A stretch of DNA of 64,000 bases from Candidatus Goldiibacteriota bacterium HGW-Goldbacteria-1 (GTDB taxonomy: Bacteria > Oederibacteriota > PGYV01), in the NCBI GenBank assembly GCA_002839855.1, contig PGYV01000002.1:203125-267124 (forward strand). The letters run 5' to 3'. The notes beneath the pieces are model-generated. The model saw only the letters and a program-made list of their open reading frames with translations. It ran no database searches and was not told the origin of the DNA. Of this stretch, positions 9,661 to 63,291 are shown in pieces (the first letter of the stretch is position 1; each line of letters begins with the position of its first letter). The translations under genes and the position numbers were made by a program.

Positions 9661-10513
9661 GGAGGTAAAAAGAAAACTATCCGGGGCTGAATCTTTAAAG
9701 TCAATAGTGCGCACAATGAAGGTGCTTGCCGCGGTAAATGTCAGGCAGTATGAGAAGATGTCTGATGCTATTGACAGGTATAACGAAATTGTGGAAATGG
9801 GTTTCAGGGTGTTTTTGGGTAATGAAGAAAAAAATTATAATCCGGCGCCGGAAGAAGAAAACACCGGATATATTGTACTGGGTTCGGATATGGGCATGTG
9901 CGGAAGGTTTAATGACCAGATAGCAGCGTATGCTTTGGAAAAAACAGGTAATAATACAGATACAGTGATGGCGGTCGGCGACAAAGTTTCCGCCAAGCTG
10001 GAAGACGCAGGGGTTAAGCCGGCGGAAACTATTATTTATCCGGCAGTCCTGTCCGCGGGCATTGTGCCGCTTCTGCGGGAGATAATTCTTAAAATTGACG
10101 GGTGGCGGGAGACCAGAGGCATAAATTCCATAAGTGTATGCTATAACAAACCGGCAGATTCACTGTCGTACAATCCTGTTATGAAAAAGATTCTTCCCAT
10201 GGAGCCGGAATATCTGGAGCAGTTAAGAAAAAAAGAATGGAAATCCCGCAGCCTTCCTATATATAAAGAAGATAGGGAGAAGTTATTCTCCGGCCTTGTT
10301 AAGAATTATATTTATGTAGCGCTATACAGGGCGTTTGTGGAATCGCTTGTAAGCGAAAACACGGCAAGGCTTATTTCCATGCAGGCGGCGGAAAAACATA
10401 CCGCAGAACGCATAGAGGAGCTGACACTGGAATACAACATGGAACGCCAGGACGCCATCACCTCTGAAATCCTTGACATCATCGCCGGCGCAGAAGCGGT
10501 GGAAGGGAAGTAA
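9647..10513 (+). CDS. atpG: ATP synthase gamma subunit
   Basis: 288 aa. Last gene of the operon. Its C-terminal 'ITSEILDIIAGAEAV' is gamma-like. Confidence 0.8.
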   Translation: MQSPEEVKRKLSGAESLKSIVRTMKVLAAVNVRQYEKMSDAIDRYNEIVEMGFRVFLGNEEKNYNPAPEEENTGYIVLGSDMGMCGRFNDQIAAYALEKTGNNTDTVMAVGDKVSAKLEDAGVKPAETIIYPAVLSAGIVPLLREIILKIDGWRETRGINSISVCYNKPADSLSYNPVMKKILPMEPEYLEQLRKKEWKSRSLPIYKEDREKLFSGLVKNYIYVALYRAFVESLVSENTARLISMQAAEKHTAERIEELTLEYNMERQDAITSEILDIIAGAEAVEGK

Positions 10514-10515
10514 AA

Positions 10516-10929
10516 AAAGCGATTTAAGCTATAAGCAGTTAAGCATAAGCGATAGCTATGATTTTGTAGTGGTTTATTTTTTTTCTTTGAATTTGTAGGG
10601 ATAGCGCTCCCGCGCTGTCCGCGTATTTGATTTGTCCTGGTAGACGCGGGTCTTCAGCCCGCGGCAGTTGGTTTGTATTTAATGTTTGTATTTATATTTA
10701 TATTTATATTTGTATTTGTATTTGTATTGGTATTGGTATTGGTATTGGTAGACGCGGGTCTTCAGCCCGCGGTAGTTGATTTGTATTTAATGTTTGTATT
10801 TGCCATGGTAGGCGAACCCTTTAGGGTGCGGCAGTTGTTCTTGAACGGTCTGCCTTGTCGCCGTTCTTCCGTCCCTCGGTTCTACTGACCTTCCAAGCCT
10901 CTAACCATCCAAGCCTCCAAGCATCTCTC
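10516..10929. repeat. Composite intergenic repeat, copy 2. Contains the 'aagctataagcagttaagcataagc' module, two REP-like hairpins, a microsatellite and the 'CCAAGCCT' module
   Basis: GTAGACGCGGGTCTTCAGCCCGCGG occurs at 10639 and 10747. A second hairpin CGAACCCTTTAGGGTGCG occurs at about 10815. The CCAAGCCT tail spans 10861-10929. Confidence 0.75.
10661..10741. repeat. Compound hexanucleotide microsatellite (TATTTA)n(TTTGTA)n(TTGGTA)n
   Basis: Directly visible as tttatatttatatttatatttgtatttgtatttgtattggtattggtattggtattgg. Confidence 0.9.
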
Positions 10930-10944
10930 AAGATAAAAATTCCC

Positions 10945-10973
10945 TTGCCAAACCTCCGCCACAGCCATATAAT
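10945..10973 (+). promoter_or_regulatory. sigma70-like promoter TTGCCA-N17-TATAAT with a conserved roughly 110-nt leader. Duplicated at 16937
   Basis: -35 TTGCCA, a 17-bp spacer and -10 TATAAT. The next roughly 110 nt are near-identical to 16966-17075. Confidence 0.55.
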
Positions 10974-11163
10974 ACCAATTGTGGCAGGGGTAATATAAAA
11001 GGAAGCGGAGGGAAGATGGAATTGGGAGCAAAAAATCGTTTTTCGTTTCTGCCTGTTATCAACAACAACTTCCCTAAAACTATGTTAAGTTTTGCCTATT
11101 TCGCGAATTTATATTCAAATTCCAAACGCAAGGGTATGGATAATAACGAGTTTTTTGTTCTGA

Positions 11164-11190
11164 TTTCAAGGTCTGGTATGAGATTATTAT
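11164..11190 (+). promoter_or_regulatory. Conserved upstream element TTTCAAGGTCYGGYAYGRG-TTATTAT (copy 1 of 4)
   Basis: Lies 25-50 nt upstream of the 11215 start codon. Paralogous copies occur at 13996, 15609 and 17141. Confidence 0.5.
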
Positions 11191-11214
11191 TTTGAATTAG
11201 GGAGGTTTTTGCGA

Positions 11215-12471
11215 ATGGCTAAAAATATTTCTTTTATAAGTATGCTGCGAGTAGTTGTTCGATTACATTCTAAAGGTATTGTCTGCGCGTTTTTATTAAT
11301 TTCAGTATCAACTATGGTATGCATTTCCTGTTCCAGACACTTAAGCCCGCCTGCTATTTCAACATCTCCGGTAACGCAGGTTCCAACTGCGGCTATTTCG
11401 GGTACTGTCTCTGCTGCGGCTTCTCATACTTTTACAAATACAGATACACCTGTTGTTTTTTACACAAATACAGAAACAAGTACGTTTACAATGACAGATA
11501 CATTTACACCAACTCGAACGGCAACAAATACCAAAACTCCTATTCCAACACTGTCTTCGGCGCAGATAATAGCCACGCAGACTGTAGTTGCGGAAATGGT
11601 GGCAGTCCCCGGGGGTACGTTTACGCAGGCGGATTCATATGGAAATTACAGTTTCGTTCACACAATTTCACCATTTAAGATTGCAAAATATGAACTTACT
11701 TATGATCTTTGGTATAAAGTGTATGATTGGTCCAGACAATCGGGTAATTATGTATATGCAAGTAATTACAGTGTCAGTGAAGGTTTTATAGGAACAACTA
11801 AACAACCGACCAACGCGAGATTTCAACCGGCTTATGGCATGTCCTGGTATGATGCAATCATTTGGTGTAATGCTTATAGTGAACTGGCAGGATTGACACC
11901 TGTTTACTATAAAGATCCTGCATTTCTTATTCCGCATAATGTTTCAAAGATAATATATCCACCAGATATTGATCCAACTCCCGGGAGTATTGATTATCCG
12001 TATGTGAAATGGGATGCAAATGGATATAGGTTACCTACATATGGAGAATGGCAATACGCGGCAAGGTATATTGACGGAACCAGTTGGCTTCCAACCAATT
12101 ACGCAAGTGGAGCGGCGGATTTTGAATATAACAGTTATGCAACAATGGCTGTTGCGTGGTGCGTGGAAAATTCAGATTATTATACGCATATTGTAGGTTT
12201 GTTGATCCCAAATGCACTGGGGATTTATGATATGTCCGGAAATGTTTCAGAGTGGTGTTGGGATTGGGGTAATACTTATTTCCCGAATACGCCGAAAGTA
12301 AATTACAGGGGACCGGATGTCTGTAGCCTGATAAATCCGGGACGAATAATAGCGGGTTCTTATTTTACTATCAGTTCTTTTGATTCCGGTGTTCATTATC
12401 TCAGTTGGAGTGATTTATTCTATGGGAACATGGGTGGTGCAGTAACAATAAGACTTGTCAGATCAAACTGA
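11215..12471 (+). CDS. Secreted lipoprotein with a Thr-rich linker and a C-terminal FGE-sulfatase (SUMF1-like) domain
   Basis: Lipobox-like 'MVCISC'. Low-complexity 'TNTDTPVVFYTNTETSTFTMTDTFTPTRTATNTKTP'. FGE-family motifs 'GYRLPTYGEWQYAARY' and 'YDMSGNVSEWCWDW'. Confidence 0.75.
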   Translation: MAKNISFISMLRVVVRLHSKGIVCAFLLISVSTMVCISCSRHLSPPAISTSPVTQVPTAAISGTVSAAASHTFTNTDTPVVFYTNTETSTFTMTDTFTPTRTATNTKTPIPTLSSAQIIATQTVVAEMVAVPGGTFTQADSYGNYSFVHTISPFKIAKYELTYDLWYKVYDWSRQSGNYVYASNYSVSEGFIGTTKQPTNARFQPAYGMSWYDAIIWCNAYSELAGLTPVYYKDPAFLIPHNVSKIIYPPDIDPTPGSIDYPYVKWDANGYRLPTYGEWQYAARYIDGTSWLPTNYASGAADFEYNSYATMAVAWCVENSDYYTHIVGLLIPNALGIYDMSGNVSEWCWDWGNTYFPNTPKVNYRGPDVCSLINPGRIIAGSYFTISSFDSGVHYLSWSDLFYGNMGGAVTIRLVRSN

Positions 12472-15608: not shown

Positions 15609-15649
15609 GGTTTTACTTTCTGGTTTCAAGATCCGGTACGGGTTATTAT
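15609..15649 (+). promoter_or_regulatory. Conserved upstream element (copy 3 of 4) GGTTTTACTTTCTGGTTTCAAGATCCGGTACGGGTTATTAT
   Basis: Near-identical to 17141-17181. Confidence 0.5.
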
Positions 15650-16889: not shown

Positions 16890-16936
16890 ATTTAACAGGA
16901 TTGACCCCGAGCTGCTGCTTTTAATAAAAAATACCA

Positions 16937-16965
16937 TTGCCAAATACCTGTTATCGCCATATAAT
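16937..16965 (+). promoter_or_regulatory. sigma70-like promoter TTGCCA-N17-TATAAT plus conserved leader (copy 2)
   Basis: Paralog of 10945-10973. The leader 16966-17075 is about 95 percent identical to 10974-11084 apart from a 1-nt indel. Confidence 0.55.
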
Positions 16966-17140
16966 ACCAATTGTGGAAGGGGTAATATAAAAGGAATCGG
17001 AGGGAAGATGGAATTGGGAGCAAAAATCGTTTTTCGTTTCTGCCTGTTATCAACAACAACTTCACAATAACTTTGTTTATTTTTGCCTATTTTGCGAATC
17101 TAAATTCGATTTCCAAAAGCAAAGTTATGAATAATTACTT

Positions 17141-17181
17141 GGTTTTACTTTCTACTTTCAAGGTCCGGCACGGGTTATTAT
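17141..17181 (+). promoter_or_regulatory. Conserved upstream element (copy 4 of 4) GGTTTTACTTTCTACTTTCAAGGTCCGGCACGGGTTATTAT
   Basis: Lies 68 nt upstream of the GHKL ATPase gene start. Confidence 0.5.
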
Positions 17182-17248
17182 TCATAAATTATGTAAGTTG
17201 TAATAGTAAATAGTTTATATAAAATGGTTTTGTATGGAGGCGGAGTAT

Positions 17249-19660
17249 ATGAGTAACGAAGATTTATTCTGGGAGTTTTATCGTGCGTCTGGAGAAAATG
17301 AAATTCATAATATTCTTGAAAAACACGATTTAATGAATAACAATTCTTTTTGGTTTCCATATGGGGGTAAGACGATTGATGATAGAAATAATTTTGGTAC
17401 GTTTGAAAGTCAGCAAGCAAATCCGATACCCGCTTTAATAGAAAAAATTACAAATTCTATTGACTCGCTATTGATGTTAAAATGCATAGAAAATGGTGTT
17501 GATCCGAAAAGTAAACTAGCTCCTAAGACAATGGAAGAGGCGATAGAAAAATATTTTAACATAAAAGATGGCGATTTTAGTGAGATAGGTAGAAATGTTA
17601 GGCGAAATATAGCTGAAGAAATACAAGTGATAGCTACTGGTGACAAACAAAGTCCTGACATTACTGTATATGATTGCGGCGAAGGTCAGTTACCAGAGAA
17701 GTTTAAAGATACATTTGTTTCGTTGTTGAAAGGAAATAAGAATGATGTACCATTTGTTCAAGGTAAATATAATATGGGTTCAACTGGAGCGGTAATTTTC
17801 TGTGGTAATAAGAAATATCAATTGATTGGGTCGAAATTAAATAAAACTATTGGTAGTTCTGAAAGTCCATTTGGATTTACATTAGTGCGTAGGCATCCAT
17901 TAACGGAAGAAGAAGAAAGCAAATATAAAAGTAGTTGGTATGAATATTTGGTTATTGAAAATGAAATACCAAGCTTTAATTGTGGCGAACTTGATTTAGG
18001 TCTGTATAATAGAAAATTCGAGTGTGGTTCAATTATTAAAATGTTTTCATATGGATTGCCAAGAGGGGCTCGTTCATCTGTGGTATGGGATTTGTGGAGA
18101 GAATTGAATCAGTTTCTATATCATCCAGCACTGCCGTTTCTTGTTTATGAAAAAAGAGGATATGATAATAAAACTCCGTCAAAACTAGTTCTTGGTAATA
18201 AGATCCGGTTAATTCTTGATGAAAGAGACAAAAAAGAAAAAACGATAACTACAAAAATCATTGATGAAAGATTTGGTGAAATTCCAATAGAAGTTCATGT
18301 GTTTAAAAATGATGTGAATCAAACTGAGTTTATCAACGGCAAAGCATTGATTTTTACTGTAAATGGACAGGTTCAGGGTTATGAAAAAAGAAACTTTATT
18401 TCAAGTGAGTTAAATTTCCCTATGTTGAAAGATCATATGCTTGTTAGGGTTGATTGTACAAATATAAGGACTTCTATACGAACGGATTTATTTAAGTCTT
18501 CTAGAGATAGATTGAATGAAAGTGTTTTAACGGAAGAATTTCTTGATAAAATTATAAATGTTTTAAAAGGCAATGAAGAATTAAGGAAAATTAACCAGGA
18601 AAGAAAGAATTCTATTTTACGACAAAATGCAGATGATAAGAAGTTATTTGAAGATATTATAACAAGAATGCCTCTGCAAAATGATTTTATTAAAATGTTT
18701 ACACAGTCAAATGATTTTAATTTTGATCTTAAAAATATAAATAAGAAACATGATAGGACTGATTCGTCTGATGGAAGTGAGAAAACTAAAAAGCCGATTG
18801 AGTCGAAAAGATTTCCTTCGATTTTCAAAGTTCAATTAAAAGATAATAACAATAAAGATAAAATTAAGACAATACCCATAAACGGAAAAGGTGTTATCAA
18901 TTTTGAAACCGATGTTGAAGATGAGTATTTGTTTAGGCCTAAAGATAAAGGCGAACTAAGAATTGGAATATTAAATTATAAAAGCAATAATGCCGACGGT
19001 GGAACGGAAGCAAAGCCAACCAAGATTGAAGAACTATTGGATGTCACTCTTAGCGGACCAACGGATAATGCAATTAAAGCGACTTTTGAACCTAAGGCGA
19101 AATTAAATGTTGGTGATGAAATTCAAATAAGCACTACGCTAACATCTCCTTCGGGGGATTTGGAATGTATTTTCTACATTAAAATTATAGATCCTCAGAA
19201 TTTGCAAGATAATAATTCAAAGAATAAAGACAAAGAAAGTCTTAACCTACCTTTGCCAATAAAAGTATTTGAAAACAAAGACAAAGACGATGATAGGACG
19301 TGGAGTGATTATGGTTGGGATGGCAATGATATTGTAAAGATAATAACTGATAATGAAAATAAAGAAAAAAAATTGATTGAGGGTATAGCGATAAATATGG
19401 ACAGTTTTGTAATCAAAAGATATATTTCTAAAAATAAAGTTATTACTTCAAGTGATCTGGTATTAACAAAGAATAGATACTTCCTTTCTGTTTATTGGCA
19501 TAGTATTTTTCTGTTTAAATTTCTTGAGAATATTTTTAAAGCCGAAGAATATCAAGAATTACCAGAAGATGTTGAGGAGATAGTAGCGCAATTGATGCAG
19601 TTTTATTCAGAATTTTTATTATCTTTTGGTATGTTAGGAGAGAGTTTAAATCAGGATTAA
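17249..19660 (+). CDS. Large (about 800 aa) GHKL/Bergerat-fold ATPase-domain protein with a K/N/D-rich C-terminal region. Candidate defence protein A
   Basis: N-box 'ALIEKITNSIDSL' (E-x3-N-x2-D). G1 box 'ITVYDCGEGQ' (D-x-G-x-G). G2-like 'QGKYNMGSTGAV'. Start chosen after 'GGAGGCGGAGTAT'; the alternative start is 17234. No signal peptide. The gene is AT-rich. Confidence 0.55.
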   Translation: MSNEDLFWEFYRASGENEIHNILEKHDLMNNNSFWFPYGGKTIDDRNNFGTFESQQANPIPALIEKITNSIDSLLMLKCIENGVDPKSKLAPKTMEEAIEKYFNIKDGDFSEIGRNVRRNIAEEIQVIATGDKQSPDITVYDCGEGQLPEKFKDTFVSLLKGNKNDVPFVQGKYNMGSTGAVIFCGNKKYQLIGSKLNKTIGSSESPFGFTLVRRHPLTEEEESKYKSSWYEYLVIENEIPSFNCGELDLGLYNRKFECGSIIKMFSYGLPRGARSSVVWDLWRELNQFLYHPALPFLVYEKRGYDNKTPSKLVLGNKIRLILDERDKKEKTITTKIIDERFGEIPIEVHVFKNDVNQTEFINGKALIFTVNGQVQGYEKRNFISSELNFPMLKDHMLVRVDCTNIRTSIRTDLFKSSRDRLNESVLTEEFLDKIINVLKGNEELRKINQERKNSILRQNADDKKLFEDIITRMPLQNDFIKMFTQSNDFNFDLKNINKKHDRTDSSDGSEKTKKPIESKRFPSIFKVQLKDNNNKDKIKTIPINGKGVINFETDVEDEYLFRPKDKGELRIGILNYKSNNADGGTEAKPTKIEELLDVTLSGPTDNAIKATFEPKAKLNVGDEIQISTTLTSPSGDLECIFYIKIIDPQNLQDNNSKNKDKESLNLPLPIKVFENKDKDDDRTWSDYGWDGNDIVKIITDNENKEKKLIEGIAINMDSFVIKRYISKNKVITSSDLVLTKNRYFLSVYWHSIFLFKFLENIFKAEEYQELPEDVEEIVAQLMQFYSEFLLSFGMLGESLNQD

Positions 19661-19696
19661 TTAATATGGAATCTAAATAAGGAACAGAAAGATAAA

Positions 19697-19726
19697 TTGA
19701 CAGTAGAAATGCACAAAGCTTATAAT
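19697..19726 (+). promoter_or_regulatory. Consensus sigma70 promoter TTGACA-N18-TATAAT upstream of the DGQHR/GIY-YIG gene
   Basis: 'ttgacagtagaaatgcacaaagcttataat' sits in the 237-bp A-B intergenic gap. Confidence 0.55.
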
Positions 19727-19897
19727 TACATTAATGTTTTAGGGAGTAATTATATAGCAATATGACATTCGAAATAACATTAAGAAAGAGTTCTAAAACT
19801 TATTTTTCAAAACGAATAGATCCAAAAGAAAAAATTCTTATTTATCAGATAGAATGTGATTTTATTCGAAAGTATAAAATTTGGAGGTTTATTAAAT

Positions 19898-21415
19898 ATG
19901 GAAAAATTTCATTATCCCGCAATAAGATTAAAACAATTTAATACCGAATTATACCTAACAAGTCTTTCTGCTGAAAGTGTAGCATATTTAGTTAATCAAA
20001 AATCATTAATCGTCGACAAATATCAAAGAGGCGAAGAAGATTCTTATCAAAGGAACGAAGATCATAGTAAGATTAGAGAACTTGCTGACTTTTTAAGATT
20101 ATATAAGAATGATGATATTGTAAAGCCGATTTTGCCAGCATCAATCATCATTAATGTCCCCGACAGTTCTAACCTAACTTTTGATGAAAAAAACGGCCAA
20201 ATTATTCTTGATAAAAAAGCAAAATTGAATATCGTAGATGGGCAGCATCGAGTCAAGGCTGTTTGTAAAGCTTATAGCGATGGAATCGCAGATGATTTCG
20301 AAGTACCAGTTACATTTATCAAAGGGTTAAAACGCATTCATGAAGCGGCTCAGTTTTTAATTATCAACGTTAAACAAAAACAAGTTAGAACCGATTTAAC
20401 CATGACCATATTGCATGAAATGAATGTACAAACGAACCAACTTGCAACGAAATTGAGAAAAATACTTAAAGTAGATGGATGGCAGATTGAAGCGACCGCC
20501 ATCGCTATTGATGTAAATACCAGGCAAAGAAGTCCATGGTTTAATTTAATAATGAGGCCCAATGAATCAAAACAATCATTGAAAGAACTAGGGGTAAAAT
20601 GGGTACCTATCAAACAGGCTTCATTTGTCGATTCACTCAGAAGATTTTGCGCTACAAATACTTCTAAAACGCTCGAGGAAAAGATCGCATTTTTAATTAA
20701 AACATGGAATTATCTTAAAAAAGAATACGCCCCTTCATTTGATTGCGAGACTGGGAATAATTATATGTTAACCAAAGGAACCGCGATAGGGCCAATACAT
20801 ATTTTTATGAGTTTGATGTATTCCATGGAAACCTGTGGTTTGTATGAAAATATCGAAGAAGTAATGACAACGTTTGTAAAAAAATATCCGTTAGAATTCT
20901 GGGAAAAGGGAAGCAAACACGCAGGATCATGGGGCACTTCGCAAAAAGAATATTATACACACGCAAAAGAAATTTCTGAAGTAATGTTTCCGGAATTGTA
21001 TTCTTTTTGGAACTCGGATTTATTAGAACATTATAGAAAAAAAGATTTAGTTGATGATGAAGTTCTTAATAGTATTGAGCATCTAATGGATCCTTTTTCG
21101 CTGAAACCATATACGGAAATAGAAGAATACATTAAAAACGATGTATCTGGTATATATTTATTAATAAATAAAAAACGAAATAAACTGAATATGTATGTTG
21201 GGCAAGCCGAAAGCATAAAGGACAGAGTTGCTGGTCATAATAGAGATTTCCTTGCTTTTAATTTCATCACTGTTAACGGCGAAGATCTAGACACGAGCGA
21301 AGCGCTCGTATATCATTTGATTAACAAAGAGTTTAGAACAAATACAATACATCCTCCTACTAAAAAATGTGAATTTTGCGAACACGATAAAAAACATAAG
21401 TCTAAGAAGAAATAA
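19898..21415 (+). CDS. DndB-like DGQHR-domain (ParB/Srx-fold) protein fused to a C-terminal GIY-YIG nuclease domain. Candidate defence protein B
   Basis: N-terminal 'YPAIRLKQFNTELYLTSLSAESVAYL' and 'KLNIVDGQHRVKAV' (DGQHR motif). C-terminal 'SGIYLLINKKRNKLNMYVGQAESIKDRVAGHNRD' (GIY...YVG...R...H, a GIY-YIG core). Terminal Cys/His cluster 'CEFCEHDKKH'. Start chosen at the ATG after a GGAGG RBS; the ORF-track start is 19856. Confidence 0.6.
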   Translation: MEKFHYPAIRLKQFNTELYLTSLSAESVAYLVNQKSLIVDKYQRGEEDSYQRNEDHSKIRELADFLRLYKNDDIVKPILPASIIINVPDSSNLTFDEKNGQIILDKKAKLNIVDGQHRVKAVCKAYSDGIADDFEVPVTFIKGLKRIHEAAQFLIINVKQKQVRTDLTMTILHEMNVQTNQLATKLRKILKVDGWQIEATAIAIDVNTRQRSPWFNLIMRPNESKQSLKELGVKWVPIKQASFVDSLRRFCATNTSKTLEEKIAFLIKTWNYLKKEYAPSFDCETGNNYMLTKGTAIGPIHIFMSLMYSMETCGLYENIEEVMTTFVKKYPLEFWEKGSKHAGSWGTSQKEYYTHAKEISEVMFPELYSFWNSDLLEHYRKKDLVDDEVLNSIEHLMDPFSLKPYTEIEEYIKNDVSGIYLLINKKRNKLNMYVGQAESIKDRVAGHNRDFLAFNFITVNGEDLDTSEALVYHLINKEFRTNTIHPPTKKCEFCEHDKKHKSKKK

Positions 21416-21562
21416 TTTTCAATCATTAAATTGATCGGATACTATTAACGAAATTACCAGTTAAAGTAATATCTGTGCCGGACATTAAAAAAGAAAGTAA
21501 ATTTATTGTTTGATTTTTCTTACGGAATGCAATCTGGGGCTTTGCGGGGAAGGGTTGGGTTA

Positions 21563-21760
21563 AAAAAGCGTTTTAAGCTATAAACAGTTAAGCAAAAGCA
21601 ATTTGACCTTTTGACCGGGTGGATAGTTAAAAATAATCTACTACCGCGGGCTGAAGACCCGCGTCTACCAGATCCAAACCAATCCTACAAGCAATCGAGA
21701 TGCCTTGCCCTTGCTTCCGTTCCTCTGTGCATCTGTCCCTCCGTCCCTCCGGTCTTACGG
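21563..21760. repeat. Composite intergenic repeat, copy 3. Contains an atpG-3'-end-like segment, the 'aagctataaacagttaagc' module, an inverted REP hairpin and the GTCCCTC module
   Basis: 21541-21602 resembles 10490-10557, including the last codons of atpG. CCGCGGGCTGAAGACCCGCG at 21641-21669 is the reverse complement of the 10639 hairpin. 21711-21760 resembles 3781-3830. Confidence 0.7.
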
Positions 21761-52416: not shown

Positions 52417-53451
52417 ATGGAAAAAACAGACCTGCGCAATTACACCAGAGATGAACTTGAAGTAATCGTCAAATCCCGTGGCGGAAACAAAATTGACTCT
52501 GCGTCATTATTTGAATGTTTATACAGATTAAAAGCAACAGATTTTAGTGACATAAAAGGGGTAAATTTAAAAGTTCTAAAACTTATAGAATCAGATTATT
52601 CATTAAGTCCTTTAAAGGTATGCGCCAGACAGGAATCCAAAAAAGATAAGACCATAAAAATGCTGCTTGCGCTTCCCGACGGCAAAAAAACAGAAAGTGT
52701 TGTCATTCCAAGCGGGCATGGATACTCCGCCTGCATTTCATCACAGGCAGGATGCGCCTGCGGGTGCGCTTTCTGCGCCACAGGCAAAATTGGTTTTAAA
52801 AGAGATTTAACGGTATCTGAAATAACAGGGCAGTATATGGCAGCAGAACATGCAGCCGGCGGTAAAATTAATAATATAATTTTTATGGGGATGGGAGAGC
52901 CGTTTTTAAATTATGAAAATCTGATAAAAAGCATAAATATTTTAACTGACCATAAAGGGTTTGCCTTTCCGCAGACAAAGATAACCGTATCCACCTGCGG
53001 TATTGTGCCAAAAATAAAAGCCCTTGCGGATTCAGGGTTAAGGGTGAATCTTGCGGTTTCAATTGTTACAGCGGACGCAAAGCAAAGAAGCAGATTAATG
53101 CCGGTTAATAAGAAATATCCGCTTGCGGAAGTAATAAAAGCTGTCAAATATTACAATCAAAAGGCTAAAAGGCAGGTCTTTTTTGAATATATAATGTTTG
53201 ACGGTATTAATGATAATCCTGAAGATGCCGAAAAACTTTATGAAATAATTAAAGATACAGACTGCAAGGTAAACCTGATAATTTATAACACCGTTAAAGG
53301 CGGGGAGTTTTCGTCCGCTCGTGATGAAAAAACAAAAGCATTCCAGAAGATACTTGTAGATAAGGGCATAAGGACTTATCAGCGCAGGGAAAAAGGCGCG
53401 GACATCTCAGCCGCATGCGGGCAGCTTGCAGGGGAAGCAGATAATGGGTAA
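52417..53451 (+). CDS. rlmN: Radical SAM 23S rRNA/tRNA adenine-C2 methyltransferase RlmN
   Basis: CxxxCxxC 'CACGCAFCATG'. Conserved C-terminal 'DISAACGQL'. Confidence 0.85.
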   Translation: MEKTDLRNYTRDELEVIVKSRGGNKIDSASLFECLYRLKATDFSDIKGVNLKVLKLIESDYSLSPLKVCARQESKKDKTIKMLLALPDGKKTESVVIPSGHGYSACISSQAGCACGCAFCATGKIGFKRDLTVSEITGQYMAAEHAAGGKINNIIFMGMGEPFLNYENLIKSINILTDHKGFAFPQTKITVSTCGIVPKIKALADSGLRVNLAVSIVTADAKQRSRLMPVNKKYPLAEVIKAVKYYNQKAKRQVFFEYIMFDGINDNPEDAEKLYEIIKDTDCKVNLIIYNTVKGGEFSSARDEKTKAFQKILVDKGIRTYQRREKGADISAACGQLAGEADNG

Positions 53452-54502
53452 CAAGACAGCGGTTAAAGTTTCAATAATAATTGTGATTGTCTTTGTCATT
53501 ATGCTGCTTTGCGGATGCGGCGAAAAACAGGTGTTTAATAAGGTTGGTTTTTATTACTGGAAAACTGTTTTTAACTTAACCTCTGCTGATACGGAACTTA
53601 TGAAAAAATTCAGGGTAAGCAGTCTTTATGTAAGGATGTTTGATGTATCATATGACAATGTATCGGGAAAACATACCTTCAGGCAGCCGGTGATGAATTT
53701 AAAACCCGTTGAAGGGGTAGTGCTTTTTCCCGTCATATTCTTATTGCCTGATACGTTTGCGCGCGGCAAGGGTAATGATCCGAAAAAAGCTGCAGCAGTA
53801 ATAATAAAAGAGCTGGATAAATTATGGAAGAGCCAGCTTGTAAAATACAGCGAAGTACAGTTTGATTACGACTGGTCGCAGGGGACTAAAGAGGCCTATT
53901 TTGAATTTCTAAAAGCAGCTGGAGAAATATATGTAAAAACAGGTATTAAAATCAGTGTTACTGTAAGGCTGCACCAGTATAAATACTGGAAAAAACTTGG
54001 GGTTCCACCGTCTGACAGGAAAAAAGTCATGGTATATAATATGAGAGATCCGCAGACTTTTGGGGAGTTAAATACAATCCTTAATATTAAGGATATGAAG
54101 AGTTATATCAGGGGGAATGTGAAATATCCGGAAAAAGTGGATGTAGTACTGCCCGTATATTCATGGTATATACAGTATAACGGAGGGAAAATAGCGGGGA
54201 TATTTACTGATATTCCCCGGGAACAGATATCAGAAGGCGGTTATTTTAAAAGATATAAAAAAAATATTTTCATTGCCCAAAAAAGAGTTATGATAAAAGG
54301 GCATGAGATATCAGCAGGGGATATTTTAAAAAAAGAGTGTGTAACGGAGAAGGATTTAAACAGAACTTTAAGCCATATAAAGAAAAATATGAATCTGTCT
54401 GGAGAGTTGATTTACTTTGGGTGGGATAAAAATAAAATTGACGAGGTGGGGAATGAAACGGTTTATAGGAATGTTATTTCTGCTGTACACAGCAACGATT
54501 AA
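53444..54502 (+). CDS. Hypothetical lipoprotein
   Basis: Signal/lipobox 'VIMLLCGCG'. The ATG overlaps the rlmN stop. Confidence 0.4.
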   Translation: MGNKTAVKVSIIIVIVFVIMLLCGCGEKQVFNKVGFYYWKTVFNLTSADTELMKKFRVSSLYVRMFDVSYDNVSGKHTFRQPVMNLKPVEGVVLFPVIFLLPDTFARGKGNDPKKAAAVIIKELDKLWKSQLVKYSEVQFDYDWSQGTKEAYFEFLKAAGEIYVKTGIKISVTVRLHQYKYWKKLGVPPSDRKKVMVYNMRDPQTFGELNTILNIKDMKSYIRGNVKYPEKVDVVLPVYSWYIQYNGGKIAGIFTDIPREQISEGGYFKRYKKNIFIAQKRVMIKGHEISAGDILKKECVTEKDLNRTLSHIKKNMNLSGELIYFGWDKNKIDEVGNETVYRNVISAVHSND

Positions 54503-57500
54503 CATACTTGCATGTCCTATGGGGCCGTCGTTGGGCGGGTTAAAGCCAAGTTTTTATGAATATGATGACTCCGTTTTATTTGAAGGCGTGACCGCCACGG
54601 CTTCGATGTATGGCAGGACTAATGATTACCCCGGAATTGCTCAGGAGTGGGAGGATTTTACAGGTAATACCACAGCGGTTAATAATTTAATTCCGTATAT
54701 TTACGGCAATGCAGATTACTTTGAAGAAAGTTATTATAATGATGAAACAAAGCAATATATAAAAGATTTGCATGAAGTTTTTATTATGAATCGTGAATCG
54801 CCTTACGGGGAAAGTCCATATCAGGAAGGATTTGATGACAGAATCAAAGTTAAATTTGAAGCCGCTGAACAGCTTTTTATAAAAAAAAGATATGCGTATT
54901 TATTCATACGGGTTTGCTTTAGCATGAAGAAATATAATAAGGTTAAGGAAATGTATGAATCTGTATTTCTGAGTGATAAATCGCAGGATATCCCTTATTA
55001 TAGGTCGCGTGGATATTATGCGGGTTCGCTTTTAAAGCTGGGTGATAAGACGAAGGCTATTGATGAATATATAACCTTATACAATGAATACCCAAACTAC
55101 AGGGGTACAATCAAAGAGGATATAATAAAAAACTCCATAAGCAGTGAAATTGACGGTTATGCTAAAAGTACAACTGATACGGCAAAAAAGTATACCGTTG
55201 CATATATTTCAGGAAATCTGGATATTATGACTGATATCGGCCCGCAATACTGGGAAACCCTGTCAACACTGCACCGCAGGTTTAAGGCGTTTCAAAGATC
55301 ATATCTGGCAAATAACTGGAAGAATATTATAGGTAATAAAAATCCAGGGAGTTTCGGAGATTCAATAAAGAAACTTTCTACAAAAGCCATGAATAACGAA
55401 CTTGCGTTATATAAAGGGTATTTTGAAAAGATACTTGCAGGATCTCAGTCGCAGGTTGTATCTGCGTATTGTAATGCTTGCCTTGGATATATTTGCAGCT
55501 TGGAGGGTGACTGGAAAAATGCTTCAAAATATATTAAAAAAGCAAAGAAGTACGAGGAAGTTCCGGAGATATTGAAAAACCAGGTAGAAATATTCATGTA
55601 TTTTAATGAACTTGCAGCGGCAACGGATACAAAAAAATTTTTAAAATCCAATGCCGAAGATTTTAATATTTTTGCGAAGAAGAACTGCATGGTCAACAAT
55701 AGTGAAGGCTGCTACGGTATGGGATGGATGGATAATGGGTACCCCGCGGATAACCTTATGATAATGCTTGCCCAAAAATTTTATCTTGAAGGCGATAAAA
55801 CGCGAAGCGCCGCATGTTTTAATAAAACGTGTGTTGATGATATAGGAAAATTTCTTCTTGATATGGAGATGACGGACAAAGAGTTTGAAAAAACCGCCAT
55901 CTTTATAACCGCTGCGCCTGATAACGAATTTGACGGTTTTCTTAAAGAGGGTTTCTATATAAATGATTTAAAGGAATGGAATTACCTGCTGGGGGTACGG
56001 AAACTGCGGGAAAAAGATTTTGTGTCGGCTTCCAAATACTTGAATGCCGCAGACCGGGACATGTTCTTTGCTCCGGATGAAAAAAAGTATTATTATTACG
56101 ATTATAATTATAGAGATAATAGGGGTGTTAAGCTGTTAAATAAAACAGTATATTTTAAATCTGCCGAAGACAAGTCTGAAGTAAAGAATAAAAAGGAAAT
56201 AGCAGAATACCTTGAAGCCCTTGAGAAAAGTGCTAAAAATGGGAAAGATGCCGCGGAGAACTACTTTAAAATGGGGCTGGCATATTACAGCTGCCCTTAC
56301 ATAGGATATTCTGATATTTTATGGAATGGCGGGATGTGGTACGGTATCAGGTACTATTGTGAACCTGATTGCTGGATAACAAGAGGGATAATAGATAATA
56401 AAAAGATGAGCGGTATTATTTCATCGTTTTATGAGGATAAATATAACAGGTTGAAATCCGCGCGGGAATATTTCATTAAGGCGGAAAAGGAAAATATGAA
56501 ATCAGGCAATAAAGAACTTAGCGCAAACTGTCTTATTTATACCGCACAGACAAAAGTGAAGACGAAATATACCAAAGATCATATAGGATATTTAAAAAGC
56601 CTTCCGGAATATAAGGAATTAATTAATAATTACCTTGAAACTGAAACAGTTAAAAATTTTGTAAACTCCTGCTCCTGGTTTGCGTCTGCCGCAGATGGCA
56701 GGGTAACTGTTATACCAACTGCCACAAATACGCCGAATGTCACCGCCACTGTAATTGCACAACAGACAGCAGCGGTACATGCGCGTGAAACCGCCACGAT
56801 GACGGCAATTTTTGTGACAAAATGGGAGACTCAGAGGGATAAAAACGGGGAAACAGGAGATCCTAAGAGCATGACAATTGACAGCCAAAACAACATTATA
56901 GTTGTTGATAATAAACTGCATAATATTCAGAAATATTCTGCTTCAGGAGCGTTGCTGAATATTATGGGATCTGTAGGGGCGGATGAAGGACAGTTTATTA
57001 AAGCTGCAGGAATAGCAGCTGACAGCCAAAACGATATTTATATATACGATAATGAGTTGAAGTATATTTCTAAATTTTCATCGAAAGGTGAATTTATTAA
57101 GAGATTTAAGCTTAATTATACGGAGGATACATATTTTCTGTCGAATATCCGCCAGGTATGCATGGACAGTAAGGGCTTTGTATATTTGTGGTACGGAAAC
57201 AAAGTTTTAAAGGTAAAACCGGATAAAGATATAATTGAAATAACTCCTGCGGATGTAATGGTTTTTGATTATGTGATAAACGGAATTGCAGTTGACTCAA
57301 AAGATAATTTGTATCTTCATGACGAAAAATCAAATACGATTCATAAAATACGTAATAACGGCAAAATATTGGATTTAAATGTTGAAAAAAAGATTAAAGG
57401 CGCTTTTTGGTATCTTAGAATTGCTGTTGACCGGAATGAAAACATATATCTTGTGGAAACTGACAAGTACATAGCGAAATATTCATCTAAAGGCAAATAT

Positions 57501-57647
57501 ATTATTGGATGGCAAAACATAGGTACACGCGACGGCGTTTTTGAGTATATTAATTCCATTGACCAGCTGGCAGTTGACAGGGATGGATATTTATATGCTT
57601 TAGCTTATGCTTCTAACGGGAGATTTGTACTGAAATTTAAGCTGTAA
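54453..57647 (+). CDS. Large secreted protein with an N-terminal TPR-like helical region, a Thr-rich linker and C-terminal NHL-type beta-propeller repeats
   Basis: Signal 'FIGMLFLLYTATINILA'. Linker 'TATNTPNVTATVIAQQTAAV'. NHL-like blades 'GIAVDSKDNLYLHDE', 'IAVDRNENIYLVETD' and 'LAVDRDGYLYALAY'. Confidence 0.55.
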   Translation: MKRFIGMLFLLYTATINILACPMGPSLGGLKPSFYEYDDSVLFEGVTATASMYGRTNDYPGIAQEWEDFTGNTTAVNNLIPYIYGNADYFEESYYNDETKQYIKDLHEVFIMNRESPYGESPYQEGFDDRIKVKFEAAEQLFIKKRYAYLFIRVCFSMKKYNKVKEMYESVFLSDKSQDIPYYRSRGYYAGSLLKLGDKTKAIDEYITLYNEYPNYRGTIKEDIIKNSISSEIDGYAKSTTDTAKKYTVAYISGNLDIMTDIGPQYWETLSTLHRRFKAFQRSYLANNWKNIIGNKNPGSFGDSIKKLSTKAMNNELALYKGYFEKILAGSQSQVVSAYCNACLGYICSLEGDWKNASKYIKKAKKYEEVPEILKNQVEIFMYFNELAAATDTKKFLKSNAEDFNIFAKKNCMVNNSEGCYGMGWMDNGYPADNLMIMLAQKFYLEGDKTRSAACFNKTCVDDIGKFLLDMEMTDKEFEKTAIFITAAPDNEFDGFLKEGFYINDLKEWNYLLGVRKLREKDFVSASKYLNAADRDMFFAPDEKKYYYYDYNYRDNRGVKLLNKTVYFKSAEDKSEVKNKKEIAEYLEALEKSAKNGKDAAENYFKMGLAYYSCPYIGYSDILWNGGMWYGIRYYCEPDCWITRGIIDNKKMSGIISSFYEDKYNRLKSAREYFIKAEKENMKSGNKELSANCLIYTAQTKVKTKYTKDHIGYLKSLPEYKELINNYLETETVKNFVNSCSWFASAADGRVTVIPTATNTPNVTATVIAQQTAAVHARETATMTAIFVTKWETQRDKNGETGDPKSMTIDSQNNIIVVDNKLHNIQKYSASGALLNIMGSVGADEGQFIKAAGIAADSQNDIYIYDNELKYISKFSSKGEFIKRFKLNYTEDTYFLSNIRQVCMDSKGFVYLWYGNKVLKVKPDKDIIEITPADVMVFDYVINGIAVDSKDNLYLHDEKSNTIHKIRNNGKILDLNVEKKIKGAFWYLRIAVDRNENIYLVETDKYIAKYSSKGKYIIGWQNIGTRDGVFEYINSIDQLAVDRDGYLYALAYASNGRFVLKFKL

Positions 57648-57689
57648 TATATATTTTGAAGTTTTTATCAGGTTAAATATAATTCCGGA

Positions 57690-57726
57690 TCAGCCGCATG
57701 CGGGCAGCTTGCAGGGGAAAAGCAGG
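57690..57726. repeat. Direct repeat of the rlmN 3' end (matches 53406-53440)
   Basis: 'TCAGCCGCATGCGGGCAGCTTGCAGGGGAA' is identical in both places. The two copies bracket the 53444-57647 gene pair. Confidence 0.8.
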
Positions 57727-57787
57727 CTTAAAATAATGTTTAAAAATGGTATAATTAAAACTATTAAATCTTAACAGGCGGTTACAA

Positions 57788-58666
57788 ATGAAAAAAATAT
57801 TAAGAAAGATACGTCAGTTTATAAACAGGCCGATTGCAGATGAGATGGAGCGTGCCCGTCTTGCGCAGGGCAGGATTGAAAAAAGGCAGGTGCTAAGTTC
57901 AAAAGTTGAAAAACTGGCGCAGGCTGAATTTCAGGTTTTTTCGCAGCACGGGGAAGACGGAATAATTCAGTATCTGCTTTCAAAAGTGGCTGTAGAAAAT
58001 AAGTATTTTATTGAATTCGGAGTGGAATCTTACAGGGAATCAAACACCCGTTTTCTTCTTATGAATGACAGGTGGCAGGGGCTGATTATAGACGGCGGCT
58101 GCGACCACATCAACTATATTTCAAAGGAATCTTTTCTTGGCATCAATCATGACATTAAAGCTGTCCAGGCAATAATTACTCCGGAAAATGTTGAACTGCT
58201 TTTTAAACAGGCAGGCGCCCCGTACGAACCTGGAATAATCTCTGTAGATATTGACTATAATGATTATTTTATACTAAAAGCAATTAAGGCATATAAACCT
58301 GCAATTTTTATAACAGAGTATAACAGGGCTTTTGGACCTGAAAAGCAGGTAACGCTTCCATTTATGAAAGGGCTTAATAGGTACAATTCGGGTATATATT
58401 TTGGCGCATCGCTTGCGGCAATTAATTCGCTTATGAAAGAAAATGGCTATGTGCTTGCCGGTTCTGAATCATGGGGTGTTAATGCTTTTTTTGTACGTAA
58501 AGATCTTGCCGTGAATATAAATGAAATAACTCCGGCAGGAGTATTTGAAAATCTGACCGCTTCTGAAAAGTACGGCAGGGATGAATTGGCGGGGATAAAA
58601 GACAGTGTTCTGCTTGATCTTGAGTCAAATAAAGAAAGAACTATAAAAGATATTTATAATTTATAG
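57788..58666 (+). CDS. Hypothetical protein
   Basis: 292 aa with no recognisable motif. Confidence 0.35.
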   Translation: MKKILRKIRQFINRPIADEMERARLAQGRIEKRQVLSSKVEKLAQAEFQVFSQHGEDGIIQYLLSKVAVENKYFIEFGVESYRESNTRFLLMNDRWQGLIIDGGCDHINYISKESFLGINHDIKAVQAIITPENVELLFKQAGAPYEPGIISVDIDYNDYFILKAIKAYKPAIFITEYNRAFGPEKQVTLPFMKGLNRYNSGIYFGASLAAINSLMKENGYVLAGSESWGVNAFFVRKDLAVNINEITPAGVFENLTASEKYGRDELAGIKDSVLLDLESNKERTIKDIYNL

Positions 58667-58772
58667 CATTGGTTTTTAATATATTACATAATCCATATAG
58701 ATACATCCTGTAAGGTGTTCAAATTTGTAATTACCTGTAAAAAAAATCATTATAATTAATCCAAGGAATAAT

Positions 58773-60047
58773 ATGAACAGATTAAAGGTAATATTCAGAG
58801 CATTCAAATATAGAAATTACCGGTTGTTTTTCGCGGGGCAGGGCTTGTCTGCTTTGGGCGGAATGATGCAGCAGATGGCGCAAAGCTGGCTTGTTTACCG
58901 TATTACCGACTCTCCGCTTATGCTTGGTATTGTGGCATTTGCGGGGCAGGTTCCCGCATTTTTGCTTACTCCGGCAGCAGGTATTGTAAGCGACAGGCAT
59001 GACAGGCGGTTTATAATACTTATTGCGGATATTGCCCAGATGGCAGTTGCTTTTATTTTTGCCGCGCTTGTATTTTCCGGCCTTATCCGCGCGTGGCACA
59101 TAGTAATTTTAAGCATTGCGGCAGGGTCTGCAGCGGCTTTTGAAATGACCACAAGGCACTCTTTTGTCCCGCAGATGGTGGAAGATAAGAACGACCTTGG
59201 GAACGCCATTGCCCTTAATTCTGTTATGTTTAATTCGGCGCGCCTGCTTGGCCCCGCGCTTGCGGGTGTGGTTGTGGCATTTGCCGGCGAAGGTATCTGT
59301 TTTTTGATAAATGGAATAAGTTTTATGGCGGTAATATCCGCCCTTTTAATGATGAATATTAAAAAACATGTATATACCCGGCACAAAAGCCCCTTGAAAG
59401 AACTTAAAGAAGGTTTTAAATATGTTACTGAATCTGTACCGCTTAAAAGTATAATTATCCTTATGGCTTTTGTAAGCCTTTTTGGTTCCGGTGTTACAAT
59501 ATTGCTTCCTGTTTTTGCGCGCGACATACTTCACGGAGATTCAATGACTTACGGTTTTTTAACGGGGGCGGTTGGATTAGGCGCCCTGTTGGGCGCTTTA
59601 AGCATGGCTGTTAAAAAGACCTTAAGGGGGTTAGCCGCCCTTATGGCGTCGGCTGCCGCGCTTTTTGGAGCCGGCCTTATTGCGGCGTCATTTTCCGGAA
59701 ACTTATATATCGCGATGGCGCTGCTTATGTTTGTGGGCGCCGGCACAATGCTGCATATGGCCGCTTCAAATACAATCATTCAGACCGTGGCGGATGACGA
59801 TAAACGCGGCAGGGTGATAAGTTTTTATATCCTTTCTTTTTCGGGATTTATGCCTCTTGGAAGTTTAATTTCGGGCTGGGCCGCGAAAATATTCGGAGTA
59901 AGGCATGTAATTGCCGCGGGCGGGGTTTTGACGCTTATTGCGGCTGGTATTTTTGTATTTTTTTTGCCGCGGATACGCAGCCATCTTAGGTCAGTATATA
60001 TTAAGAAAGGCATAATTCCTGCTGAAACGGTGGTAGAAATAAAATAA
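58773..60047 (+). CDS. MFS transporter (enterobactin-exporter-like)
   Basis: 12 TM helices. N-terminal 'YRNYRLFFAGQGLSALG'. Confidence 0.8.
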   Translation: MNRLKVIFRAFKYRNYRLFFAGQGLSALGGMMQQMAQSWLVYRITDSPLMLGIVAFAGQVPAFLLTPAAGIVSDRHDRRFIILIADIAQMAVAFIFAALVFSGLIRAWHIVILSIAAGSAAAFEMTTRHSFVPQMVEDKNDLGNAIALNSVMFNSARLLGPALAGVVVAFAGEGICFLINGISFMAVISALLMMNIKKHVYTRHKSPLKELKEGFKYVTESVPLKSIIILMAFVSLFGSGVTILLPVFARDILHGDSMTYGFLTGAVGLGALLGALSMAVKKTLRGLAALMASAAALFGAGLIAASFSGNLYIAMALLMFVGAGTMLHMAASNTIIQTVADDDKRGRVISFYILSFSGFMPLGSLISGWAAKIFGVRHVIAAGGVLTLIAAGIFVFFLPRIRSHLRSVYIKKGIIPAETVVEIK

Positions 60048-60132
60048 GGCATTTAAAATTGACTTATTTTACCCGCGGGGTTAAAATAAATTTATAAGAT
60101 TATTTAAGGGGTAAAAGTATTCAGGAGGGTTT

Positions 60133-62193: not shown

Positions 62194-62303
62194 AAATCTG
62201 CTGCTAAACAGCAGGTGTATCTTGTTTAAACAGTAACAACTGCCTGCTTGTATTATTTCTCGTATTTCGGTATATTATTAATTAAGGATGAAAAGAGGGG
62301 AAT

Positions 62304-63185
62304 ATGAAAAAGAAAACGGGCACGAAGGTAAAATTAAAAGCGGCATTTAATTCAATTGCCTTTATCAGCGGCAGGATGGGTTCTGTTTTTAATTCAACTG
62401 TGGCAAAAGGCATTGAAAATCATGTTGCACTGCTGGGCGGCGGCAAGAAAACAATCCTTTATCACCTGCCAAGGGACGGTTCGGCAGAAGCCTGCAGCGC
62501 GGAAATTAATGATGTTATAAAACAAGGCGAGGCTGACGGTTTAATCTGCCTTAGTTTTACCCCGACGGAAAGCGCCGTGCAGAAAATCATAAAAAGCGGA
62601 ATGCCCGCGGTATTTGTTGAAAGAAAAATAAAAGGGCTTCATTCCGTGAAAGTGGATAATTATAAAGGGGGATACACAGCGGGTGAATATCTTGCAAGAA
62701 AGGGTTATAAGAAAACCGGTTTAATAATTGACCCGCAGTGCGCGGATGAAAAATCCGCTTCTTATGAAAGGCTTTTGGGTTTTAATAAAGCGCTTGATTT
62801 TTATGGCATAAAACAGTTAAAAGGCGCAAGCGTTATGGCAGCCAGGCATAGCATAGAGTGCGGCAGGGATGTTTTTGAAGAGTTTGAAGATAAAATAAAA
62901 GGGATTGATTCTGTATTTTCTGTGGCCGGCGACCTTGTAGCGATAGGTTTTATGATGGAAGCAAAGGCCGGCGGGATGAAGTTTCCTGAAGATATAGCAA
63001 TAATGGGTTATGACGGGATTGAAGCGGCTAAAGCGGTTTTCCCGGTTCTTACCACAATTAAGCAGCCCATTGAAAGAATGGGAATGGAAGCGGTGGAAAT
63101 TATTAATGGCTGTTTAAAAGGCTTAATTGACGGGGAAAAGCACCTTGGTATTGACACGGAATTATCTGAAGGCGGCACTGTTTAA
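62304..63185 (+). CDS. LacI-type ligand-binding (periplasmic-binding-protein-like) domain protein lacking the HTH
   Basis: Aligns to the C-terminal two-thirds of the LacI paralogs at 1592/2620 ('DIAIMGYDGIEAAKAVFPVLTTIKQPIERMG'). There is no N-terminal DNA-binding helix. Confidence 0.6.
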   Translation: MKKKTGTKVKLKAAFNSIAFISGRMGSVFNSTVAKGIENHVALLGGGKKTILYHLPRDGSAEACSAEINDVIKQGEADGLICLSFTPTESAVQKIIKSGMPAVFVERKIKGLHSVKVDNYKGGYTAGEYLARKGYKKTGLIIDPQCADEKSASYERLLGFNKALDFYGIKQLKGASVMAARHSIECGRDVFEEFEDKIKGIDSVFSVAGDLVAIGFMMEAKAGGMKFPEDIAIMGYDGIEAAKAVFPVLTTIKQPIERMGMEAVEIINGCLKGLIDGEKHLGIDTELSEGGTV

Positions 63186-63291
63186 GAATTCAGATTCATT
63201 ATTAAAAACGCTAGAGTGCCCGGCGTATTAAAAAAGTATTTGCTGATTTTTAAATATTCATTTTAAACCTAAAATAATAACATGGGGATTT

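Follow-up and report, generated by a model that had tools for sequence, protein, structure and literature searches.

A MORC/MutL-like GHKL ATPase gene beside a DGQHR-GIY-YIG fusion gene in Candidatus Goldiibacteriota: a candidate facultative pair of restriction-type defence genes

MutL activates the nucleases MutH and Vsr. ATPases which combine a GHKL domain with an S5 fold are associated with diverse nucleases in restriction systems, for which they were proposed in 2008 to loop DNA (PMC2292703), and VcSduA, a fusion of a GHKL ATPase with a nuclease, is a validated defence protein (PMC12137116). The DUF262 domain of the GmrSD-type enzymes possesses QR, DGQQR and FxxxN nucleoside triphosphatase (NTPase) motifs (PMC12137116). 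Here we describe two adjacent genes from Candidatus Goldiibacteriota HGW-Goldbacteria-1, located in a 64-kilobase (kb) stretch of a 343-kb contig; this stretch as a whole is called the window, and our scans of this genome for Ssp, Dnd and Dpd genes are confined to it. Gene A (17249..19660, + strand, as are all features below unless stated otherwise; hypothetical protein CVV21_02470) specifies an 803 amino acid (aa) MORC/MutL-like GHKL ATPase, and gene B (19898..21415; CVV21_02475) a 505-aa fusion of a DGQHR domain, of the DndB/DpdB-like ParB/Srx fold, to a GIY-YIG nuclease. Both open reading frames (ORFs) are present on the same strand as described in an earlier note on this DNA, which had proposed that they form a two-gene defence module. 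We give about an even chance to the reading that the two genes serve restriction-type defence as a facultative pair, an ATPase platform with a nuclease effector, here without DNA-modification genes. The components are of known kinds, since GHKL ATPases that go together with nucleases, and ParB-fold sensors joined to a nuclease, both have precedents; their combination here is new.

Gene A is a member of the GHKL+S5 (MORC/MutL-like) group. The three Bergerat boxes reported in the earlier note are present and are invariant in 52 homologs: motif I (E65-KIT-N69-SI-D72; EKITNSID at 17441-17464), motif II (D142-C-G-E-G146; DCGEG at 17672-17686) and motif III (G172...G177-S-T-G180; GKYNMGSTG at 17762-17788), as is a further motif, G209-F-T211 (17873-17881). 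The GHKL domain is followed by an S5-fold transducer, the arrangement of a MORC/MutL-type module, and the two occupy approximately residues 35-420 (17351..18508). The window protein found no match in Pfam (HATPase_c_3 included, E<=1), NCBIfam or PADLOC; 16 of 21 full-length homologs match HATPase_c_3 (PF13589; best E-value 2.3e-5), while the members of one clade (clade I, below) score 20.6-24.5 bits, slightly below the 25-bit cutoff. Searches of PDB sequences with single sequences and family profiles of either gene yielded nothing useful. The C-terminal part had been said to hold no recognisable domain, which is so by sequence, whereas AlphaFold predicts with good confidence a coiled coil, two immunoglobulin (Ig)-like beta-sandwiches and a helical hairpin. 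The order after the transducer is coiled coil, disordered linker, an invariant RFPSIF motif (18809-18826), the two predicted Ig-like domains (residues ~526-716; 18824..19396) and the C-terminal helical hairpin (19406-19639). No nuclease or other effector fold was detectable in this protein. The family has thousands of members in many phyla, among which it is patchily distributed, all annotated only as hypothetical proteins, and no phage was found to carry it.

With the prokaryotic MORC/paraMORC ATPases (Iyer, Abhiman & Aravind 2008, PMC2292703; the paraMORC3-type Shedu protein VcSduA, PMC12137116) gene A shares the intact GHKL+S5 module, the patchy distribution across phyla and the association with diverse nucleases. 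It differs from them in the C-terminus just described, which is distinct and lacks a fused restriction endonuclease (REase) or TIR domain, in that no superfamily 2 (SF2) helicase or methylase partners were seen with it, and in that one of its clades lies within SspBCD loci, which neither of these two papers describes. Membership in paraMORC3 or paraMORC4 is ruled out, there being no C-terminal RecB-like REase or TIR domain. Compared with MutL and its partners MutH and Vsr, gene A has no MutS-like partner, no MutL C-terminal dimerisation/endonuclease domain, and a context of defence rather than repair. Nor is it SspE, SspF, SspG or SspH, since there was no PADLOC hit and SspF is a Walker A protein and SspH FtsK-like (PMC8092258).

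The first ~370 residues of gene B (19898..21007) constitute the DGQHR, or DndB/DpdB-like, domain with the motifs YQR (residues 50-52; 20045-20053), DGQHR (114-118; 20237-20251) and FLIIN (153-157; 20354-20368). Their counterparts in DUF262 are the QR, DGQQR and FxxxN NTPase motifs. The GIY-YIG domain with its His/Cys tail (21110..21379) contains GIY (G418-I-Y420; 21149-21157), YVG (Y433-V-G435; 21194-21202), R443 (21224), E468 (21299), N482 (21341), HPP (from H485; 21350-21358) and CEFC (C491-xx-C494; 21368-21379). All three N-terminal motifs, the GIY-YIG catalytic residues, HPP and the Cys pair are conserved in the family, DGQHR being nearly invariant, which bears out the earlier description of a DGQHR motif, a GIY-YIG core and a terminal Cys/His cluster. 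The profile TIGR03187 (DGQHR) is matched well above its curated cutoff (97.5 versus 58.85 bits; residues 22-312), and there are matches to Pfam DndB (59 bits) and PADLOC DpdB (51 bits; residues 15-355), together with fold matches of the N-terminal domain to ParB-N, sulfiredoxin and BrxU. The companion profile for the nuclease, Pfam PF01541, scored 19.2 bits and remained under its gathering score of 22.6; the catalytic Tyr, Tyr/Gly, Arg, Glu and Asn and the alpha/beta fold of GIY-YIG enzymes are nevertheless in place, and two homologs (P0125 and P0132) carry a precomputed Pfam GIY-YIG match. Gene B is not a DndB (TIGR03233; 33.3 versus 328 bits) or DpdB (NF041060; 53.5 versus 300 bits) equivalog, and its PADLOC matches are limited to domain-level DpdB/DndB and weak PDC-S14/UzuA GIY-YIG hits. 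A weak match to TIGR01453 was also seen.

The logic attributed to gene B in the earlier note, a ParB-like domain joined to a nuclease as in GmrSD and SspE with other domains in their place, agrees with these results: it is built like that family without being a member of it (GmrSD_N 13 bits against a cutoff of 33.2; no DUF1524). Whereas SspE, GmrSD, BrxU and the two-gene GrwAB use DUF262, the sensor of gene B belongs to the DGQHR/DndB-DpdB clade; its nuclease is GIY-YIG and not the His-Me/DUF1524 type of SspE, GmrSD and BrxU. It shares with DndB and DpdB the same domain over ~350 residues, and differs from them by scores far below the equivalog cutoffs, by the absence of dnd or dpd genes nearby and by the extra nuclease domain. 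In an exhaustive search of 1.84 billion representatives only ~25 clusters span both domains, while hundreds of stand-alone DGQHR relatives of ~370 aa match the first ~367 positions only, so the fusion is rare. The search for phage carriage of gene B returned one weak partial DGQHR match only, and neither gene has an intron or intein context. No system in PADLOC-DB v2.0 is matched by gene A or gene B, in line with the earlier opinion that the pair is not a named system. Neither clade of gene A is named in Pfam (2025), NCBIfam 20 (2026) or PADLOC 2.0, the source annotations being blank or reading "hypothetical protein"; no paper in the literature library searched combines sspBCD with GHKL, and a 2024 reappraisal of phosphorothioate (PT) systems includes neither GHKL nor MORC.

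The gene neighbourhoods of the gene A family were studied in 80 loci (numbered with the prefix L) drawn from 340 matching genomes. The family splits into two clades in a neighbour-joining tree, and the window belongs to clade II, which has 38 other loci. SspB, SspC and SspD are absent from the clade II loci; a weak PAPS-reductase-like neighbour in L028 was considered as SspD and is not SspD. The immediate neighbours in this clade are heterogeneous. Directly after gene A, small nucleases are found repeatedly, and their folds are unrelated: YhcG of the PD-(D/E)xK type after gaps of 3-4 nucleotides (nt) in L013, L017, L018 and L021, GIY-YIG proteins in L036/37 and L030/47, and an HNH-like protein in L124 (clear motif, weak PDB support with an E-value of 0.012); the DGQHR-GIY-YIG fusion in the window is one such case. 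Among 774 neighbour ORFs, all 14 matches to a GIY-like hidden Markov model (HMM) fall in a cassette beside gene A, and in L081 gene A is accompanied by GIY and DGQHR genes with no Ssp gene within 8 kb. Together with the clade II nucleases, these observations suggest that gene A is linked to nucleases in its own right, and not solely through a shared presence in Ssp loci. The neighbours of gene A in L124 were also considered as a DGQHR/GIY pair and rejected, the downstream gene being HNH-like instead and the upstream gene encoding an uncharacterised 395-aa protein. A protein of ~350-395 aa, 37% identical between L124 (885-2072) and L011 (6925-7968), is encoded directly before the gene A relatives of these loci, 1 nt away from them in L124, and is possibly a further partner of the ATPase in clade II.

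In clade I, 34 of 37 loci adjoin SspC and/or SspD, a count taken from loci chosen through gene A that does not give the share of SspBCD loci with gene A; two of the three exceptions are truncated contigs. The Ssp proteins are recognised by PADLOC with 1297 (SspC), 371 (SspD), 348 (SspB) and 461-463 (SspA/DndA) bits, and the loci span many phyla (L042-L084, for example L077 7953-12187 and L066 7986-12256; L121 and L122). Between SspD and gene A, or right after gene A, is a variable cassette. The most frequent type consists of a GIY-like protein of ~170 aa and a DGQHR protein of ~420 aa (TIGR03187, 98.8 bits), usually separated by less than 30 nt or overlapping; both occur in 11 loci and the DGQHR protein in 13. 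The others are DUF262 with a Ser/Thr kinase (6 loci), a second GHKL/histidine-kinase-like protein with a 646-aa protein (4 loci), SspE (795 bits, 3 loci) and DUF262 with SIR2 (2 loci); several neighbour families were assigned from single representatives. Since the types are interleaved on the tree, the cassettes appear to be swapped frequently. Plasmids annotated by the Prokaryotic Genome Annotation Pipeline (PGAP) independently show the gene A family in Ssp loci with such cassettes. A Hymenobacter plasmid carries, in this order, an integrase, a gene A family member ("hypothetical protein"), SIR2, DUF262, PAPS reductase, SspC, DUF4007 and integrases, and on Ensifer pC the order is SspC, SspD, a hypothetical with a histidine-kinase-like protein, and gene A family. 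The whole unit of Ssp and gene A family genes on the Hymenobacter plasmid is flanked by integrases.

The sister clade of gene A is in this way connected to the SspABCD-SspE and SspABCD-SspFGH systems, sometimes with SspE itself at the locus, whereas family HMMs detect no SspA-D in the window. The DGQHR domain of gene B is a distant homolog of that in the cassettes (hhalign 93%, E-value 2.6e-7 over 281 columns), and the GIY region aligns weakly with the cassette GIY protein (E-value 7e-4). Gene B goes undetected (E<0.01) by an HMM made from the DGQHR and GIY proteins of Ssp loci. Since the relation is visible by profile-profile comparison only, we consider gene B an analogous cassette and not an ortholog. 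The split pair is ordered GIY then DGQHR, the reverse of the domain order in gene B, so gene B is not a simple gene fusion of that pair.

Several results weigh against our reading, among them the absence of direct linkage. By tblastn, gene B relatives were found in none of the 80 gene A loci; they are likewise missing beside gene A's closest relatives (54-57% identity). Conversely, neither the gene A family nor SspBCD was found by tblastn or family HMM in any of 25 distinct loci of gene B-type fusions; of these loci, 13 extend upstream by 2.5 kb or more and 11 do so downstream. No protein fusing GHKL to DGQHR occurs among the 150 best representatives; P0168, examined as such a fusion, has an N-terminus which does not match the gene A family HMM. 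The absence of co-occurrence in both directions indicates that each gene works without the other. The strict two-gene module fails, because homologs of the two genes are unlinked elsewhere, an outcome which the earlier note had itself named as refuting; what stands is adjacency at the family level to GIY-YIG, DGQHR and small nuclease genes. The juxtaposition of A and B is so far unique to this genome. A perfect sigma-70 consensus promoter (TTGACA-18-TATAAT, 12/12; 19697..19726) lies within the 237-nt A-B spacer, so that there is no evidence of co-transcription. Furthermore, the nucleases downstream of clade II genes represent only ~5 independent events, the adjacency of gene A and DGQHR in clade I could be indirect if both were recruited by SspBCD, and the clades themselves come from clustering the neighbours of the 80 loci and from a midpoint-rooted tree without support values. 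Two independent single-gene systems may share one islet by incidental adjacency, with gene B an autonomous SspE/GmrSD-like nuclease and gene A a stand-alone MORC-like ATPase, active by itself or together with unlinked genes. We regard this as a serious competitor that is nonetheless probably not the right one. It would account for the lack of ortholog-level linkage (0/80 and 0/25), for the separate promoter and ribosome-binding site of gene B, for the solitary occurrence of gene B homologs among restriction-modification (RM), DpnI, Mrr, GmrSD and nSTAND genes and for the heterogeneous neighbours of most clade II loci, yet it leaves gene A without an effector domain of its own, and the rare DGQHR/GIY-YIG genes recur beside the gene A family in at least 13 loci plus 4 of clade II and nowhere else in those flanks. 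Cooperation between A and B as a facultative pair is plausible.

Another possibility is that A and B are the orphaned or trans-acting restriction side of a PT (Ssp-type) system, reading PT marks made by genes elsewhere in the genome or since lost. The almost constant proximity of gene A's sister clade to SspBCD, where it is paired with split DGQHR and GIY-YIG genes, points in this direction, as does the view that SspE is the equivalent of DndB (PMC10853773), and the window comprises only 64 kb of the 343-kb contig. The idea is unlikely, given that no SspA-D was detected in the window (family HMMs built from 5-34 loci), that a pooled PADLOC scan of the 53 other window ORFs gave no Dnd, Ssp or Dpd match, and that SspBCD is found in 0/38 other clade II loci and 0/25 gene B loci. 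We think it very improbable that the roles lie outside defence, with gene B a DndB-like transcriptional regulator or a mobile homing-type GIY-YIG endonuclease and gene A a MutL-like ATPase for repair or chromosome organisation. DndB is reported, in work cited in PMC10853773, as an ATP-modulated repressor, GIY-YIG domains are common in homing endonucleases (gene B having the weak TIGR01453 match), and the leader upstream of gene A is common to non-defence neighbours. Against such roles, RM, toxin-antitoxin, integrase and Ssp genes predominate around both families, the distribution across phyla is patchy and the GC content low, and neither intron or intein surroundings nor phage carriage were seen.

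Returning to the facultative pair, we picture gene B as a sensor and effector in one, sufficient by itself. The ParB-fold domain, similar to DndB and DpdB, probably binds DNA and possibly reads a modification state. Binding or hydrolysis of nucleoside triphosphates would serve as the switch, as in SspE, GmrSD and BrxU, and would control the nicking or cutting of foreign DNA by the fused GIY-YIG domain. Without a nuclease of its own, gene A most likely dimerises on ATP binding and so would clamp or loop DNA, in agreement with the looping proposal of 2008 (PMC2292703). Perhaps by physical contact, it would license or amplify whichever separately encoded small nuclease is its neighbour, here gene B, as MutL does for MutH and Vsr.

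Should A and B cooperate, the MutL/MORC principle of an ATP-driven clamp licensing a separate nuclease would extend to a new defence architecture, in which the nuclease bears a DndB-type sensor instead of the DUF262 of SspE and GmrSD. The more valuable lead lies outside the window, in an unnamed MORC-like family that is in one clade a near-constant neighbour of SspBCD with swappable ParB-fold cassettes, of which clade I yields a catalogue of variants. We tentatively propose, while thinking it less likely than not, that the gene A family is an unrecognised and widespread MORC-like core partner of SspBCD, docking interchangeable ParB-fold sensor/effector cassettes (SspE, DUF262+kinase, DUF262+SIR2, DGQHR+GIY-YIG), and that the Ssp-free clade, A+B included, is a modification-independent defence built of a GHKL clamp and a swappable nuclease. 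About 85% of SspBCD loci have neither SspE nor SspFGH (PMC8092258). If the proposal is true, it supplies candidate restriction partners for these loci; as most SspBCD loci lack a known one, the gene A family is a concrete and testable candidate.

The homologs of gene B stand alone among RM, DpnI, Mrr, MvaI/BcnI, GmrSD_N and nSTAND genes. In one sub-branch (~32% identity) they belong to arrays with a DruA-like protein, a Rad50/SMC-like ABC ATPase, a 176-aa protein and a NurA-like nuclease, and gene B relatives end the operon-like array in L098 (819-7452), L108 and L094; the ABC ATPase has 711 aa (PDB Rad50, E-value 3e-13). The 176-aa protein was considered as DndE, for which no match was obtained. 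These arrays resemble DndBDE-type triads (DndB, SMC/Rad50-like ABC ATPase and a small protein) in combining a ParB-fold protein with an ATP-driven DNA clamp, and may represent a DndBDE-like or Druantia-related system which uses a DndB-GIY-YIG fusion; in the window a GHKL ATPase takes the place of the ABC ATPase as clamp. In three loci (L087/L090 3124-4619, L097 and L109) two neighbouring ORFs stand in place of a single gene B homolog, such as a 136-aa piece from the DGQHR N-terminus and a 362-aa remainder, which could reflect a frameshift, a pseudogene or an assembly error.

The start of gene A was taken as ATG 17249 (803 aa) because GGAGG lies 8 nt upstream and the length equals that of the NCBI protein; the ORF itself opens at 17234 (808 aa). 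For gene B, ATG 19898 (505 aa) was chosen because GGAGG (19884-19888, in the A-B spacer) lies 9 nt upstream and this start agrees with that of the homologs, the ORF itself opening at GTG 19856. The leader and promoter region of gene A (16927..17181), which includes a sigma-70-like promoter (TTGCCA-17-TATAAT, 16937-16965) and found no match in Rfam, is an 85-90% copy of 10935-11189. This long leader of ~250 nt is hence duplicated before ORF 11209-12471, and a 41-nt piece of it (15609-15649) precedes ORF 15687. These copies may represent a regulatory leader common to several genes, an arrangement that would be surprising in a defence gene acquired by horizontal transfer.

The GC content of gene A (0.31) and gene B (0.33) is lower than that of the left (0.45) and right (0.42) flanks, as the earlier note had remarked. 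The low-GC block is also bounded by repeats as had been claimed: a perfect, hairpin-containing 25-nt core, GTAGACGCGGGTCTTCAGCCCGCGG, occurs in two direct copies at the left boundary (10640..10772; 10640-10664 and 10748-10772) and in one inverted copy at the right boundary (21644..21668, - strand), shortly downstream of gene B, and nowhere else in the window, none being expected by chance. No integrase or transposase was seen in or beside the block, a tRNA scan of the window revealed no tRNA integration site, and an RNA scan of 10-22.5 kb gave no Rfam hit. Outside each end of the block is a 44-nt direct repeat of 89% identity (10510-10553 versus 21559-21602), and between the left-hand copies of the core is a tandem array (10673-10749) of 12-nt T/G-rich units, TTTGTATTTATA-like.

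The remaining window, the ORFs of which were read by eye without profile searches, resembles core chromosome, with an ATP synthase operon, H+-pyrophosphatase, ychF, aspS and a plsX-fab cluster. In the pooled PADLOC scan one ORF matched mad3 (E-value 8e-36) and one mad8 (E-value 7e-12) of the MADS system; these ORFs are not within 52417-63930 and may be housekeeping proteins with a common domain. A 686-aa ORF (60133-62190) matches the HMM of the ~790-aa GHKL/histidine-kinase-like cassette proteins of Ssp loci (E-value 7e-16) but nothing in PADLOC; it probably encodes a sensor kinase of the ordinary sort.

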